From a virus (lineage: Duplodnaviria; Caudoviricetes): DNA of 64,000 bases. Made by a program: the position numbers and the translations under genes. The notes below the pieces were generated by a model, which searched no databases, was not told the DNA's origin, and saw only the letters and a list, made by a program, of their open reading frames with translations. Below are positions 54,674-63,637 of this stretch, one piece after another. Within the stretch, counting starts at the first letter, position 1. Every line of letters begins with the position of its first letter. The stretch is from positions 96,001-160,000 of the IMG/VR virus record IMGVR_UViG_3300017780_003104; one strand, given 5' to 3'.

Positions 54674-56329
54674 ATGTTTGAGAATAAAAGAAACGCAGAA
54701 GTCGTGACTGTTAAATCAGTTACTCGTAAGGAAGTTAACGCATTCCTAAACAATGCTAAAGCAGAATCATCCAAGACTCGTTCTGGTAACGGGGCATTGA
54801 AATTCAGTTCAAGTGGTGATTCGTTTACCGATCAGTTTACTAAGGCTGGTAAGTATAAGGAACCTCGTAAGTTCTCTCAAATCGCACAAGATTGTGAAAT
54901 GTTGTGGGGTGAAGACCCTCTCAAGTGTGTGAAGTTCGCATTGTTTCTTCGTACTATTCCTCGCGTAGTTAATCTTCCTGATGGAAGTAAGACTGAACTT
55001 CCTCAAAAGGGAACCGAGTTGAAGCATGAAGCAATTATGCGTATGCTTTGGTTGAGTGATAAGTCTCCTCAAGCATTCTGGAATAACATTCTATTGTTTG
55101 TTTCTCTTGGATCTTGGCACGATGTTTTCACTATGCTTCAATATGATCTTAGCTACAACGGTTGGAATAATCGTAAGCTTGATTGGGATAAGTTTGGTGA
55201 GTTGATTCTTGCTGGTCTTAACAATAAGAACACCTGTGATCTTATTAAGAAGTATCTTCCTCAAATCAAGTCTCGTAGTCAAGCTACGACTATTGATGCT
55301 CAATCCAACAATGCTATTGCTAAGTGGATTTGCTCTCTAGTCTTTGGTAACAAGGAAAGCGCATCTTCATACAAGGCTTATCGTAAGATCAAGACTAGTG
55401 GAACCGCGCATGATTGGCAAAAGCTTATCTCCCAAAAGAGAATGAGTGAATTGGATTTCAATAAAATTCATGGTCGTGCTCTATCAATTCTTGTTAAGAG
55501 TAAGTTCTTAAAGAACCAAGGACTTAGCGATAAGTATGCATCTTGGATTACTGCACCTACCACCAAGGAAGTTAAGTATACTGGATTCGTCCATGAACTC
55601 TTCGAAGGTAACTGGAAGAACGATAAGAACAACGAAGCAACTATCAATAAGCAATTCGATACTCTTGTTCAAAAGGCAAGAACTAATGAAGTTACTGATT
55701 TGATTGTCGTTCGTGATACTTCTGGATCGATGTCTTCAATTTGTCCCGGCACTAAGTCTTCATGTCTTGATGTTGGAAAGGCAATCGCTCTATACTTTAG
55801 TGAATTCCTTCAAGGAACCTTTGCGGGTCATTGGATTGAATTCAACTCTGATGCTAAACTTCAAAAATGGGTTGGTCAAACTCCCGTTGATAAGTGGAAG
55901 AATGATAAGTCAAGCTTTTATGGTGGAACTAACTTTCAAAGTGTTGTTAATCTTCTCGCTAAGATGAAGAAAGAGGGAACACCTGAAAGTGATTTCCCTA
56001 GCGGTATCCTTTGCATTTCCGATGCAGAATTCAATCCTACTTCATTAGGTAAAACTAATGTTGAGACTGCGTTGACTACTCTTCGTAATGCTGGATTCTC
56101 CAAGGCTTATGTTGATAACTTTGTGATTATTCTTTGGAACCTTCAAAATAGTTATTATGGTAAAGGGTCTGGTGAAAAGTTTGAGACTGGTAAAGAAGTA
56201 AACAACGTTTACTATCTGGGTGGGTATAGTGCCTCCGCAGTTAGTTTCCTTTCAGCTAAGATCAAGACAACCTATGATCTAATCAACGAGTGTCTTAATC
56301 AGGAAGTTTTGAATATGGTTGAGATTTAA
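54674..56329 (+). CDS. Ro60/TROVE-like (DUF2828-type) RNA-binding protein with a C-terminal vWA domain
   Basis: Helical N-terminus (KFALFLR, GSWHD, KYLP) and vWA MIDAS elements VVRDTSGSM, GGTNF and ISDAEF; TTGACA-16-TAAGAT-N6-ATG upstream. Confidence 0.72.
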   Translation: MFENKRNAEVVTVKSVTRKEVNAFLNNAKAESSKTRSGNGALKFSSSGDSFTDQFTKAGKYKEPRKFSQIAQDCEMLWGEDPLKCVKFALFLRTIPRVVNLPDGSKTELPQKGTELKHEAIMRMLWLSDKSPQAFWNNILLFVSLGSWHDVFTMLQYDLSYNGWNNRKLDWDKFGELILAGLNNKNTCDLIKKYLPQIKSRSQATTIDAQSNNAIAKWICSLVFGNKESASSYKAYRKIKTSGTAHDWQKLISQKRMSELDFNKIHGRALSILVKSKFLKNQGLSDKYASWITAPTTKEVKYTGFVHELFEGNWKNDKNNEATINKQFDTLVQKARTNEVTDLIVVRDTSGSMSSICPGTKSSCLDVGKAIALYFSEFLQGTFAGHWIEFNSDAKLQKWVGQTPVDKWKNDKSSFYGGTNFQSVVNLLAKMKKEGTPESDFPSGILCISDAEFNPTSLGKTNVETALTTLRNAGFSKAYVDNFVIILWNLQNSYYGKGSGEKFETGKEVNNVYYLGGYSASAVSFLSAKIKTTYDLINECLNQEVLNMVEI

Positions 56330-57127: not shown

Positions 57128-57462
57128 AAGCAAAAAACATAGTATTTCGATAGGATTATATTCAGCAAATATACTACTCAACTGTTAATTGAAAAAAGTA
57201 AAAGTAATCCGATAAGAATTTCAGCAGCATAATATCGTAACTATAACGACTCTAAGGTAGCTTAGGTTTGGGAAACCAATACGGCGATGGTAGATAGGTA
57301 AACTAAGTTCTTTATAGAATATGTAAACCCTACGGGACGAACGATTGAATATTTATATATTCTTTAATGTGTCAGTGAAAGATGAAATTCTGATAAAATT
57401 AGCAACAGCAAACCAAACAAAAATTTGACTTTTAATCAAACAATAAAATGCTAATTTGATAC

Positions 57463-57741
57463 ATGGAAATATTTTATATCATAACACTATCATTCATATT
57501 GAATGTATTATGGTCAATGATGGGTAGAGCTAGAAATAGAAACAACCTCATTTATCATGGTGTATTAGTATTTCTATCAAATCTATTATGGATTCTTTTT
57601 ATGAAAAAGTTAATGACTTCCGATACGGAATCTTTAATATATGGAAGTATTGGTGGGACTATTGGTGCCATTTGTGGACAACCATTATCAATGTTTATTG
57701 AACGTGTGTTGAATGCTAAGAGTGATGATCACATAGAATAA
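57463..57741 (+). CDS. Small membrane protein
   Basis: Three hydrophobic segments; starts 2 nt after the RNA array. Confidence 0.65.
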   Translation: MEIFYIITLSFILNVLWSMMGRARNRNNLIYHGVLVFLSNLLWILFMKKLMTSDTESLIYGSIGGTIGAICGQPLSMFIERVLNAKSDDHIE

Positions 57742-57742
57742 T

Positions 57743-58042
57743 ATGGAAGACTACTGGACAAAAAATAATCTAATCAAACCCGCATCAAGGATCGTATGTG
57801 CTGCTAATAGGCATAAAGAATCTGGTAGGATTGTCTGTGGTGCTCGTCATTGGGATAATGTAATGCGTTCACAAAAACTTGAATCAGAAACCTTTAATAA
57901 TTGGGATCAAGGATTCATCAATCAATTTGGTGAATGGTTGAATAGAGAAGAAGCGTGGGTAATTGCCGAAGAGCAGGGACAGATTAGAAATCTTTGTTAC
58001 GACAAACAGACGGGTTACTTATTCAGCGAAAATTTATACTAA
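57743..58042 (+). CDS. Conserved phage hypothetical protein
   Basis: RIVCAANR..RIVCGARHWD, QGFINQ and LFSENLY. Confidence 0.7.
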   Translation: MEDYWTKNNLIKPASRIVCAANRHKESGRIVCGARHWDNVMRSQKLESETFNNWDQGFINQFGEWLNREEAWVIAEEQGQIRNLCYDKQTGYLFSENLY

Positions 58043-58043
58043 G

Positions 58044-58355
58044 ATGGAAGAATATTATGTATTTATAACACCCGACAATGTAATATGGGGGGTGGGACTT
58101 TCTAAGAAAGAAACAGTAGAGGATGCTCTTAAAAATATTAATGATTATCCCGATTGGGATTCTAAGCCAAAGAGTGGTAAGATTGTGAGAGCTACATATG
58201 AACTAGCATGGGAAATCTGGGATAATGGATTCAATGAAGATGTGTGGGACTTAGAGAAGAATGGTGAAATGTGGTTAGCTATATTAAAGGATAATAATCC
58301 AGATGATCATTATACTCAACTTACTATAAAGGAAACAAAACTAAAATACAATTAA
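58044..58355 (+). CDS. Hypothetical protein
   Basis: ATG at 58044 is in frame with track ORF 57963. Confidence 0.6.
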   Translation: MEEYYVFITPDNVIWGVGLSKKETVEDALKNINDYPDWDSKPKSGKIVRATYELAWEIWDNGFNEDVWDLEKNGEMWLAILKDNNPDDHYTQLTIKETKLKYN

Positions 58356-58379
58356 TTAAAACCGAACTATAATAACAAT

Positions 58380-58844
58380 ATGAAGAACATGAACATCGCA
58401 ACCGCATTGAAAGAGAAAAATCGAATCACGGGACGCATTAGTGTATTGCAAGCACAAGTCTATAAGTTTAATACCTATACTAAAGGAGTTGATCAAGACT
58501 TCAATTCGAATGATCTTTTAGTAAAACTACAAGAAGAGTGGGCATTCCTAATTGATCTTAAGACTAAGATCACAAAGGCCAATGTTGGTATTACTGACAA
58601 GTTGGTGCGACTCACAGAATCCAAGGCTGAACTTTCCTTCTGGAATAGCTTTAGGAATACTGGATCAAGTGAGACTAAGAGTAATGAACGCAAGTATATT
58701 GACGGTGAGTGGGCATATGTTGAGGTTGCAACCGTCAATACCATCAATAGTAAAACCGTTCAAGAGAACGTTGATCGTGTTCAAAAGCAAATTGAAGATC
58801 TCCAAGATGAGATTGACAATTATAACGGGACCACAAAGATTTAA
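58380..58844 (+). CDS. DIP1984/DUF6847-like coiled-coil protein
   Basis: MNIATALKEK, LIDLKTKITKAN and IEDLQDEIDNYN. Confidence 0.7.
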   Translation: MKNMNIATALKEKNRITGRISVLQAQVYKFNTYTKGVDQDFNSNDLLVKLQEEWAFLIDLKTKITKANVGITDKLVRLTESKAELSFWNSFRNTGSSETKSNERKYIDGEWAYVEVATVNTINSKTVQENVDRVQKQIEDLQDEIDNYNGTTKI

Positions 58845-58850
58845 ACAATT

Positions 58851-59138
58851 TGGATAGTCCGATCTGTAGTAAGTGAAAGAGGGCGCGACCCCCTCAATTG
58901 GGGCTTAGTCAGTCGTAGGATGACAACCTACCTATCCATAATAATTTCCGGGAGTAAGTAAGGACATTCAACATTTAGTGATTTCACTAAAACACCGAAC
59001 TTTGATAATGTTACTGATAATATTTCCTATTTTCGAATAGGAATAAAACTTAAGGTTTAAAACTTAGTAGTTTAAAATTCAAACATTAAAGTTTAAAATT
59101 TAGTTATGTTGAATAGAAGCTATTGAAACCGGAATCCA
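58851..59138 (+). ncRNA. Two-domain structured RNA with a heptamer repeat tract
   Basis: TGGATAG/CTATCCA enclosing GAGGG/CCCTC and GTAGG/CCTAC; TTCCGG/CCGGAA enclosing ATTCAACAT/ATGTTGAAT, TTTAGTG/CACTAAA, TTCCTATT-TTCG-AATAGGAA and eight AAAnnTT-like units (59045-59101). Confidence 0.65.
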
Positions 59139-59172
59139 TTTTTTATAATAAACTTAAAATACTGATAAATTT

Positions 59173-59682
59173 ATGAAAACTACAACTTTTAATTGGGATG
59201 ATGATACTATTGATTCCCGTGATATTATTGAACGACATGAGGAACTACAAGAAGAATTCGATTCTCTTGTAGAAGCCTTGGAAGAGGCAGAATCAGACTT
59301 CAGATTTGTGAATGATAGTGATGAATCATCACTATATGAATATCAAGATGCTGAGAATACCATTAGCTTGGCTCAAGATGCTATTGAAGATTTCAATCTA
59401 TCAGATAATAGGGAGGAACTCGATTTATTGAATAAAGTGATCGCTCAAGGTGAGGATTCTCCTGATTGGCATCATGGCGAAACTCTTATTCATGAATCGT
59501 ACTTCACAGAATACATTAAGAATTTGATCGTTGATTGTTATGATTTCCCATCCGAATTAACTGATGGGAAATGGCCGTTTAACCACCTAAATTTCGACTT
59601 TGAAGGAGCGGCAGAAGAAGCTAAAGTGGATTATTCTACTATTGAAGCTGGTGGAGAAACTTATTATATTAGAAGCGTTTGA
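59173..59682 (+). CDS. Highly acidic protein, ArdA-like DNA-mimic candidate
   Basis: Very D/E-rich; C-terminal YFTEY...WP...DFEGAAEE..DY...TYYIR. Confidence 0.4.
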   Translation: MKTTTFNWDDDTIDSRDIIERHEELQEEFDSLVEALEEAESDFRFVNDSDESSLYEYQDAENTISLAQDAIEDFNLSDNREELDLLNKVIAQGEDSPDWHHGETLIHESYFTEYIKNLIVDCYDFPSELTDGKWPFNHLNFDFEGAAEEAKVDYSTIEAGGETYYIRSV

Positions 59683-59757
59683 CTAGGTAGAAAACATTCC
59701 GAAGAGATTAAACAAAAAATGAGAGAAGCTAGACAAAGAATTTCTAATGATGATTAA
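59683..59757 (+). pseudogene. Orphan NUMOD3 fragment of a lost homing endonuclease
   Basis: Translates to LGRKHSEEIKQKMREARQRISNDD* with no start. Confidence 0.7.
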
Positions 59758-60058
59758 TTATAAGACATTAACAGTTCAAGAACTAAAAAAGGATTACTCT
59801 GAAAGACATGGATTTATTTTCCAAGGTCCAAATAGATCATCTGATAAAGCTATTGAACATCTTTGTAATACATTGATTCAACATAATATCACTAAGGAAT
59901 ATCCAGAATTTGTTGTTAGATTGGATGATCTTAATTTAGTCTTTGTATATCAAGACGATTTCGATGCTCCTCCATTTTTCCATAAGGCTGATATTGCAAC
60001 TCAAATGGGTATCTGTAAAATAGAATCCTTATCAATCTTCTTAAAAAAACAACCCTAA
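59747..60058 (+). CDS. Hypothetical protein
   Basis: 103-aa ORF. Confidence 0.6.
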   Translation: MMINYKTLTVQELKKDYSERHGFIFQGPNRSSDKAIEHLCNTLIQHNITKEYPEFVVRLDDLNLVFVYQDDFDAPPFFHKADIATQMGICKIESLSIFLKKQP

Positions 60059-60064
60059 AATAAT

Positions 60065-60295
60065 ATGTATGAACTAATTAATCCCATGACTTATGGGCAA
60101 GCGGCAGATGTCCTCAATAGATGTGATGAAGATGATATTCCAATCTATATTGTATTGACAGACTTGAATAAAAACATTACCAAATTTCCAATTGATAACT
60201 TCCAAATGTTTAAGGAAGTTACTGGACATGACATTAATGAGATGTTTCCCTTTAGCTTTTCCAAAGATGATGATGCCGTATATATCGGTAATTAA
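60065..60295 (+). CDS. Hypothetical protein
   Basis: 76-aa ORF. Confidence 0.55.
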   Translation: MYELINPMTYGQAADVLNRCDEDDIPIYIVLTDLNKNITKFPIDNFQMFKEVTGHDINEMFPFSFSKDDDAVYIGN

Positions 60296-60315
60296 AACCG
60301 AAATACACTTTGGGT

Positions 60316-63562: not shown

Positions 63563-63637
63563 GGCATCGTAGCTCAATGGAAGAGCAACACCCTTCTAAG
63601 GTGTGGGTTGAAAGTTCGAGTCTTTCCGGTGTCACCA
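63563..63637 (+). tRNA. tRNA-Arg(UCU) with encoded CCA
   Basis: GGCATCG/CGGTGTC acceptor, GCTC/GAGC D-arm, ACACC-CTTCTAA-GGTGT anticodon arm, GAAAG-TTCGAGT-CTTTC T-arm, ACCA. Confidence 0.95.

Follow-up and report, generated by a model that had tools for sequence, protein, structure and literature searches.

What binds a small phage protein gene to the long, repeat-bearing non-coding stretch that follows it? The question is raised by the IMG/VR phage record IMGVR_UViG_3300017780_003104 (211.7 kb, bearing direct terminal repeats), of which bases 96001-160000, a stretch of 64 kb hereafter called the window, were examined. Within the window, a gene of the DUF6847/DIP1984 family is followed, on the same strand, by a sequence whose core (58946-59134) is a conserved, structured, strand-specific RNA. 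This RNA is linked exclusively to the DUF6847 gene, and in bacteria the pair stands in the context of rtc operons, the latter being the new point. A dedicated protein-RNA pair is the best reading of the locus, because homologous genes carry the RNA together with its repeats and because searches of whole genomes place the RNA nowhere but next to the gene. Specifically, the DUF6847 protein and the RNA 3' of its gene would be the two halves of one ribonucleoprotein (RNP), rtc-linked in bacteria and carried alone by large phages, a reading that is held with slightly more belief than doubt.

The RNA accompanies the DUF6847 gene across phages

A profile of 36 homologues of the window protein retrieved 69 viral loci, 54 of them distinct (loci are designated here by L numbers), and an iterated nhmmer search confined to the 480 nucleotides (nt) past each DUF6847 stop codon recovered a homologous element 3' of the gene in 46 of the 54, at protein identities down to 29%. 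Most of the remaining eight loci (L144, L149, L150, L157, L158, L173, L190 and L193) share the layout by eye. A survey of the regions downstream of DUF6847/DIP1984 genes had been proposed as a check in an earlier interpretation of the locus (the sequence-only reading), and both the RNA and its heptamer phasing were thus recovered, in phages at the frequency just given and also in bacteria. The RNA lies within 0-230 nt of the DUF6847 stop codon. A covariance model (CM) named R1, which was built from ten members and recovers thirteen full-length ones, matches other phage clades over its full length, and every such match is on the strand of the gene and immediately 3' of it; the window copy scores 167 bits and is its sole match both within the window and in the 211.7-kb phage genome as a whole. 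When the search started from the RNA, pattern scans of IMG/VR and of the JGI metagenomes yielded seven distinct loci, and the gene is present wherever the upstream sequence suffices. A strict two-anchor DNA pattern returned three close relatives only, a looser three-anchor pattern returned 48 stretches, 45 of them by chance, and a single metagenome scan added L120, L073 and L081 only.

The members share one plan. At the 5' end, a clade-specific closing stem is followed by variable hairpins, from one to three of them, and then by GAY units, numbering two to five, at a spacing of 6 nt and sometimes 3 nt. A hairpin with a UUCG loop often precedes the heptads, of which there are six to nine, each with Y-A-A fixed, and the stems are then completed by their 3' strands. 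Several clades have a clear intrinsic terminator beyond the RNA. In the consensus of the family hidden Markov model (HMM), three (GAUAAY) units precede NNUCAAA units, and the autocorrelation of its A content has maxima at lags 7 (0.42-0.56) and 14. Across the range from AT-rich phages to GC-rich bacteria, the heptad phasing is retained in units that read UCAAA, UUAAA or CGCAA.

The position of the element would also suit a cis-acting 3' untranslated region (UTR) of the DUF6847 mRNA, which might stabilise the message, serve in its processing or mediate autoregulation; in bacteria, the element could instead be an attenuator that precedes rtcA/rtcB. In neither case would it act as a partner in trans. 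Indeed, the element always lies on the strand of the gene at the short distance given above, a terminator often comes next, and in bacteria it falls between the gene and rtcA/rtcB. However, a multi-helix structure of ~190 nt with conserved single-stranded repeats, maintained from AT-rich phages to GC-rich Verrucomicrobia, exceeds the needs of a stabiliser, and the neighbour genes in phages are clade-specific, leaving no common downstream gene to be regulated. A purely cis-acting element is, on balance, unlikely, and a dedicated protein-RNA pair is preferred.

Two local departures from the layout were also observed. In the phage locus L148, and in no other, a tRNA-like sequence (T-arm GTTCGATTC) lies 3' of the DUF6847 gene instead of the repeat RNA. 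In the clade-B phages L181, L176, L137 and L172, an open reading frame (ORF) of ~62 aa, zinc-ribbon-like in having two CxxC pairs, intervenes between gene and RNA, ~1-190 nt past the DUF6847 stop codon, and shifts the RNA ~230 nt downstream.

Architecture of the window copy and the heptad tract

The DUF6847 stop codon and the next ORF are separated by a gap of 328 nt (58845-59172) that contains no ORF of at least 40 aa; a 101-aa frame inside the DUF6847 gene extends 13 nt into it. The stop codon ends at 58844 and the first stem, TGGATAG, begins at 58851, 6 nt on, exactly as had been reported from the sequence alone. Two domains follow (58851-58938 and 58946-59134), which amount to ~284 nt together; domain 2 is the core considered here (Table 1), whereas domain 1 is described in the last section. 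Within the core, the P4 hairpin is retained with a different sequence in each relative, the GAU tract has the family consensus (GAUAAY) x 2-3 with equivalent GAY repeats in all clades, and the P7 stems differ in L129, L131, L136, L054, L133 and L134, with a loop that reads UUCG or UUAG.

The eight heptamers that the sequence-only reading had placed at 59045-59101 are present there with exactly the letters given. The tract can also be parsed in an alternative phase, as eight U-Y-A-R tetramers beginning at 59050, 59057, 59064, 59072, 59079, 59086, 59093 and 59100, which are spaced over 59050-59103 by 7, 7, 8, 7, 7, 7 and 7 nt. A repeat search finds in it two 24-nt half-repeats 36 nt apart, and the tandem-repeat program TRF calls periods of 7 and 14. 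In shuffles of the tract, the chain of units never exceeds four (0 of 2000), and chains of at least six occur in 6 of the 2548 segments of 328 nt scanned on both strands of the 64-kb window; these six, available as a count without listed positions, are assumed to be the segments that cover the tract. Counting chains of strict Y-A-A is too crude, since many units read YAG or YAC, and the column entropies show YAA as fixed and the spacers as variable.

An RNA of this kind recalls VIPR, a mostly phage-encoded system in which a small protein gene adjoins a tandem-unit RNA, the vrRNA, with ~9-16 short units of fixed and less fixed positions, along which the Vipr protomers polymerise; Vipr is a RAMP/RRM protein, the unit is a 5-nt GGY/NN with hypervariable NN, and several vrRNAs occur per locus (bioRxiv 10.64898/2026.04.26.720920, 10.64898/2026.04.26.720927). 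By analogy, DUF6847 protomers might polymerise on the fixed U-Y-A-A and leave the N3 bases of the heptads to read a nucleic-acid target non-contiguously, and the anatomy is in line with such a guide, in that a fixed motif alternates with less constrained bases over eight to nine units of a phage-encoded RNA that has a structured remainder and an adjoining protein gene. The two systems nevertheless differ in protein fold (the fold search returns 3KDQ only, and no RAMP/RRM), in the unit (7-nt UYAA/N3, hence period 7 and not 5), in the number of RNAs (one per gene and locus) and in the bacterial context, which is RNA repair for the DUF6847-RNA pair. Moreover, the variable positions are not hypervariable: the window copy and L120, whose proteins are 93% identical, differ at nine RNA positions, none of which falls in the 66-nt tract, and much of the tract is invariant across the genera of Opitutae. 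A fast-evolving VIPR-type guide is disfavoured for this last reason, and a VIPR-like function as a whole is regarded as improbable.

Two further readings of the tract were tried and rejected. Mimicry of anticodon loops by the heptads fails, as U33 and R37 are not retained in GC-rich clades, and a self-paired fold of the "beads-on-a-string" type is feasible only with the palindrome UUAA and not in the UCAA or CGCAA clades.

Table 1. Coordinates of the DUF6847 gene and of the parts of the downstream RNA in the window
Feature	Position	Strand	Length	Remarks
DUF6847/DIP1984-fold protein gene	58380-58844	+	154 aa	Identified by Pfam, NCBIfam, AF2 and Foldseek
Domain 1 accessory stem-loop	58851-58938	+		7-bp closing stem TGGATAG/CTATCCA
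Core partner RNA (domain 2)	58946-59134	+	~189 nt	CM match 58942-59139
P1 helix	58946-58951/59129-59134	+		Outermost of three nested long-range helices
P2 helix	58957-58960/59121-59124	+		Nested long-range helix
P3 helix	58966-58974/59106-59114	+		Nested long-range helix
P4 variable hairpin	58975-58990	+		Inverted repeat I17; differing stems at the same place in L129, L131, L136 and L054
GAU hexamer tract GATAAT GTTACT GATAAT	59004-59021	+		Invariant columns; also in the family HMM consensus
P7 hairpin	59024-59043	+		TTCCTATT / AATAGGAA, UUCG loop; inverted repeat I19; stem covaries
Heptad tract	59044-59103	+		Nine ~7-nt units (one of 8 nt): fixed U-Y-A-A/G and three less constrained bases

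Compensatory changes define a folded RNA on the strand of the gene

Domain 2 is kept at 77% column identity among three close relatives (proteins 59-65% identical), which already display compensatory changes, e.g., from TTCCGG/CCGGAA to TTCTGG/CCAGAA, and in the distant member L054 the P1 helix reads GTCGGG/CCCGAC and the P3 helix CTTCAAT/ATTGAAG. In the R1 alignment of 13 relatives, 89.9% of the cells pair, compared with 64.7% in shuffles, and 16 of the 18 pairs are changed on both sides; 0 of 500 shuffles reach these values on every measure, and sliding the partners by 1-3 columns, as a control, gives a pairing of 24-49%. The inner hairpins (58975-58990 and 59024-59043) hold their position while the sequence of their stems changes, and the GC-rich version of the RNA in Opitutae has 50 predicted pairs, 17 of which show compensatory changes. 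As regards the strand, G-U/U-G pairs outnumber A-C/C-A pairs in the R1 alignment by 21 to 5, and therefore the folded strand is that of the gene (+).

These observations bear on whether the element might act as DNA, i.e., as iterons, an origin or promoter repeats. An AT-rich tract of direct repeats with two weak promoter-like matches inside could be taken in this sense, but such matches are no commoner than in shuffles, the long-range helices show compensatory changes with G-U favoured on one strand, and the architecture is retained in GC-rich genomes, so that a role as DNA element is given next to no credence. As for known RNA families, a search of Rfam 15 at E<=1 returned no match on 58845-59172, nor in 10 diverse loci of the RNA family.

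The DUF6847 protein

The DIP1984/DUF6847 family has been represented by a crystal structure since 2009, and its members are often mislabelled "septicolysin". The window protein, of which 73 homologues were gathered, matches Pfam DUF6847 (PF20935) over residues 15-152 of 154 (E 4.5e-6), its 27.1 bits marginally passing the gathering score of 27, and NCBIfam DIP1984_fam (NF038048) from end to end (profile positions 2-147 of 149) with 38.3 bits, below the cut-off of 70; it is thus a divergent member of the family. An AlphaFold2 (AF2) model built on 36 homologues (mean predicted local distance difference test, pLDDT, of 92.3) consists of three long helices (6-30, 43-89 and 124-151) and a beta-hairpin (98-119), and has the fold of the solved family member 3KDQ, an uncharacterised protein from Corynebacterium diphtheriae. 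In a Foldseek search against the PDB, 3kdq_C and 3kdq_A are the top matches (template modelling, TM, score of 0.68, E 6e-4), and the remaining ones stay below a TM score of 0.35; a profile search also picks up 3KDQ, weakly. The AF2 model and this only significant PDB match therefore justify the label "DIP1984-like coiled-coil gene" given in the sequence-only reading. The motifs LKEKNR, K61, ANxGI, ExK and QDxxDxxN are invariant among the homologues. At the nucleotide level, a blastn search with 57400-60300 as query found no match among 50,697 deposited phages.

Deinococcus radiodurans is the model organism for bacterial Ro60/Y RNA; used as a control genome, it contains a Pfam DUF6847 match above the cut-off.

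A comparison with TRAP or CsrA had been suggested by the regular heptamers. TRAP, an 11-mer with a beta-sandwich fold, recognises (G/U)AG triplets separated by 2-3-nt spacers in the leader that it regulates. The heptad tract is similar in that short fixed motifs are regularly spaced in single-stranded RNA, which may suggest one site per subunit of an oligomer; it differs from the TRAP case in its period of 7, in belonging to a closed, structured RNA that lies 3' of the gene, and in the fold of the DUF6847 protein, which is neither that of TRAP nor that of CsrA.

The sequence-only reading had also considered a toxin/antitoxin (TA)-like pair, i.e., a protein toxin with an RNA antitoxin, similar to type III systems. 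In type III TA systems of the ToxIN kind, an endoribonuclease toxin is preceded by antitoxin RNA repeats of ~36 nt, e.g., ToxI. The DUF6847-RNA pair has neither the endoribonuclease nor the preceding repeats: the Foldseek search against the PDB shows no nuclease fold, PADLOC matches neither the gene nor its neighbours, the RNA follows the gene instead of preceding it, the units are of 7 nt with a longest direct repeat of 24 nt in two copies, and the bacterial pair sits inside RtcR-controlled RNA-repair operons. Two points speak for such a pair, namely the repeat-bearing RNA beside a gene for a small protein and the occurrence of DIP1984-family genes on small plasmids (PMC10889530); the proposal of a TA-like pair was nevertheless not sustained and is considered very unlikely. 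The literature searched contained nothing on DUF6847 and nothing tying DIP1984/DUF6847 to an RNA or to rtc operons; the one incidental mention was that of a "DIP1984 family protein" on an Acinetobacter plasmid (PMC10889530).

Bacterial relatives lie in rtc operons

The same protein profile identified 57 bacterial loci in species-representative genomes, most of them in Verrucomicrobiota (Opitutae, Akkermansia), Lentisphaerae/Victivallales and Kiritimatiellia, and a few in Armatimonadota and Bacteroidota. For bacterial genomes, a protein alignment made for this work (A3) was used, because PF20935 misses divergent homologues in genomes that clearly have them. Fourteen bacterial loci are tied to the phage model by nhmmer at E<1e-3, and R1 matches L204, L222, L223 and L257. 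A second CM, R2, built from 14 Opitutae sequences, gave 2, 2 and 1 matches in three whole bacterial genomes (4-6 Mb), one of which is outside the R2 seed, and each match begins ~20 nt past a DUF6847 gene. The Opitutae RNA keeps the CGAUACCGAC tract and has UUAAC/UCAAC/UCAAA heptads.

Annotation with Pfam places RtcR divergently upstream and/or RtcA/RtcB directly downstream, on the same strand, at 32 of the 57 bacterial loci. In an independent, even sample of 201 genomes of the phylum, eight genomes have the gene, at nine loci, and eight of the nine are beside RtcR and/or RtcB, the ninth being at a contig end. Moreover, a strict sigma-54 box (TGGCAC-N5-TTGC) is located 73-235 nt upstream of the DUF6847 start in 10 loci. 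The gene order in bacteria of the Planctomycetes-Verrucomicrobia-Chlamydiae (PVC) group is a divergent rtcR followed by DUF6847-RNA-rtcA/rtcB, with the RNA occupying the gap between DUF6847 and rtcA/rtcB. In Salmonella, rtcR is followed by rsr-yrlB-yrlA-rtcB-rtcA (PMC7790460, PMC4201824), and, by analogy of gene order, the slot of the DUF6847-RNA pair can be said to mirror that of Ro60/Y RNA.

The operon context is also a point in favour of a decoy or sentinel, whose A-rich units would offer cleavage sites to toxins or defence RNases, thereby sparing cellular or phage RNAs or giving cyclic-phosphate ends for RtcR/RtcB, with the protein guarding or presenting the RNA; RtcR is a known sensor of the ends of cleaved RNA (PMC7790460). 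Such a function has a slim chance of being correct, since the fixed unit differs among clades (UUAA, UCAA or CGCAA), which suits a co-evolving binder better than a single nuclease site.

Some bacterial loci show variants of the cassette. In L199 (3247-5348) and L201, the place of rtcA after a divergent rtcR and DUF6847-RNA is taken by genes for an AAA+/STAND-like ATPase and for a 303-aa protein without Pfam match. In Geminisphaera colitermitum TAV2 (L249, 140-840 and 1621-2328), five tRNA genes and a sigma-70-family gene are located just upstream of DUF6847-RNA-rtcB, and RtcB is 510 aa long with an N-terminal extension of ~190 aa. The whole cassette is present in two copies in this genome and in Nibricoccus (L239, L241).

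Proposed mechanism and points against it

In the proposed mechanism, the RNA would be co-transcribed with the gene, or made right after it, from the same strand, and the three nested helices would join its ends and frame an open region. In this region, the GAU-hexamer tract and a hairpin would be presented together with the phased U-Y-A-A(N3) heptads, eight to nine in number, which are most likely a row of putative binding sites for several protein copies. The fixed unit shifts by clade at a constant spacing, which is more in keeping with a protein reader that co-evolves than with an external target that stays the same. In the PVC-group bacteria, the pair would be the first cistron block of RtcR/sigma-54-controlled rtc operons, and it probably has a role in the response to RNA damage, because it holds the place of Ro60 (Rsr)/Y RNA in Salmonella; large phages would presumably use it to handle or exploit RNA cleavage during infection. 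Altogether, the pair, which recurs in about a hundred phage and bacterial loci, probably forms a protein-RNA particle that is so far undescribed and has a tie to RNA damage; its protein-RNA binding, stoichiometry and function are predicted. A more specific version can be conceived, in which DUF6847 protomers, one per U-Y-A-A, expose the spacer bases as a non-contiguous reader, so that a conserved target, such as broken tRNA or rRNA ends, would be passed to RtcB in a form of RNA-guided RNA repair borrowed by large phages; this version is a long shot.

Several observations weigh against a ribonucleoprotein involved in RNA damage. As to the protein, its isoelectric point (pI) is near neutral (6.4), and by Foldseek its fold is no known RNA-binding fold. 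As to the RNA, single-sequence folding of the window copy compared with shuffles gives z scores of -1.65 on the + strand and -2.75 on the - strand, only weakly better than the shuffles, so the structure rests on covariation; the duplex energy of its closing stem is likewise unremarkable (z -1.2), the window copy not being among the 36 of 64 loci in which this energy is significant. The covariation counts, in turn, come from an alignment fitted to the model R1, although alignments made with MAFFT only already displayed the same compensations. Lastly, this phage has neither RtcB nor RtcA, and the phage records with the pair encode RtcB in 1 of 25 cases and a Ro60-like gene in 5 of 47; the link with repair rests, for this reason, on the bacterial relatives, and in phages the pair travels alone.

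The same counts bear on the suggestion that the locus is a second RNP system near the Ro60 array of this phage. This suggestion is reasonable given linkage and exclusivity. The pair does not, by the count of 5 in 47, depend on Ro60. In this phage, the Ro60-like gene occupies an ORF of its own (54674-56329), and nearness of the pair to the Ro60 array is common only to the closest relatives.

If the pair is an RNP, a second, unrelated RNP would occupy the Ro60/Y RNA slot of RtcR-controlled repair operons and would be widely spread by large phages. The widespread DUF6847 family, long without a function, would thereby gain a partner and a context open to testing, and the RNA would represent an uncatalogued family with an unusual phased-repeat design, which bears on what RtcB/RtcA repair acts upon and on how its targeting works. 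Culturable or well-sampled hosts exist, namely Geminisphaera colitermitum TAV2, Akkermansia and perhaps Deinococcus radiodurans.

Relation to published systems

The closest published analogues appear to share a logic only, as far as comparison by analogy can tell: Ro60-Y RNA in slot and architecture, VIPR in the combination of a tandem-unit RNA with a polymerising protein. In the Ro60 (Rsr)-YrlA/YrlB system of the Salmonella rsr-yrlBA-rtcBA operon (PMC7790460, PMC4201824; RF02553), a protein gene is likewise followed by its own structured RNA, the ends of which are paired in a long stem; both systems lie between a divergent rtcR/sigma-54 and rtcA/rtcB, and both are also phage-borne. The position between rtcR and rtcBA is found in the bacterial relatives (32/57 and 8/9 loci) and not in this phage. 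Conversely, the DUF6847 protein has the DIP1984 fold of three helices and a beta-hairpin, whereas Ro60 is a TROVE ring with a vWA domain; the DUF6847 RNA has no Rfam YrlA match at E<=1 and no tRNA-like core, no tRNA being called in it; and its phased 6- and 7-nt repeats have no counterpart in Y RNAs.

A further likeness concerns the unassigned intergenic cluster #156,623, in which fixed tetramers and variable 3-mers alternate with a 7-nt period, an array is followed by its reverse-complement copy ("beads on a string"), and no protein is co-localised (bioRxiv 10.64898/2026.10.21.760802). As compared by description only, the heptad tract has the same alternation and period; by description only, it is also set apart, being one-directional and always 3' of DUF6847.

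The accessory domain 1 and the neighbouring genes

The sequence-only reading had described a two-domain RNA. Both domains are present where it placed them, but the conserved core is domain 2 only, and domain 1 is optional: judged by its distribution among the sequences compared, it is a clade-limited add-on outside the conserved RNA unit. In domain 1, the 3' strand of the closing stem runs straight into the hairpin GTAGG-ATGACAA-CCTAC (5 bp, 7-nt loop), an arrangement that resembles the acceptor and T-arm of a tRNA minihelix, although no tRNA is called there. The hairpin, with its loop AUGACAA, occurs once in the phage genome and is identical only in L120, L131 and L132; the domain is absent from L136, L129, L054 and all the remaining clades. 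L131 carries two domain-1 modules.

Small ORFs flank the pair, one upstream (58044-58355, 103 aa) and two downstream (59173-59682, phrog_25535; 59747-60058, 103 aa). All three are syntenic with the pair in L054, the two downstream ones in L129 and L131, and only the last one in L136. Farther downstream in the window, at 63563-63637 on the + strand, a tRNA-Arg(TCT) gene is identified by both ARAGORN and Rfam (67 bits).

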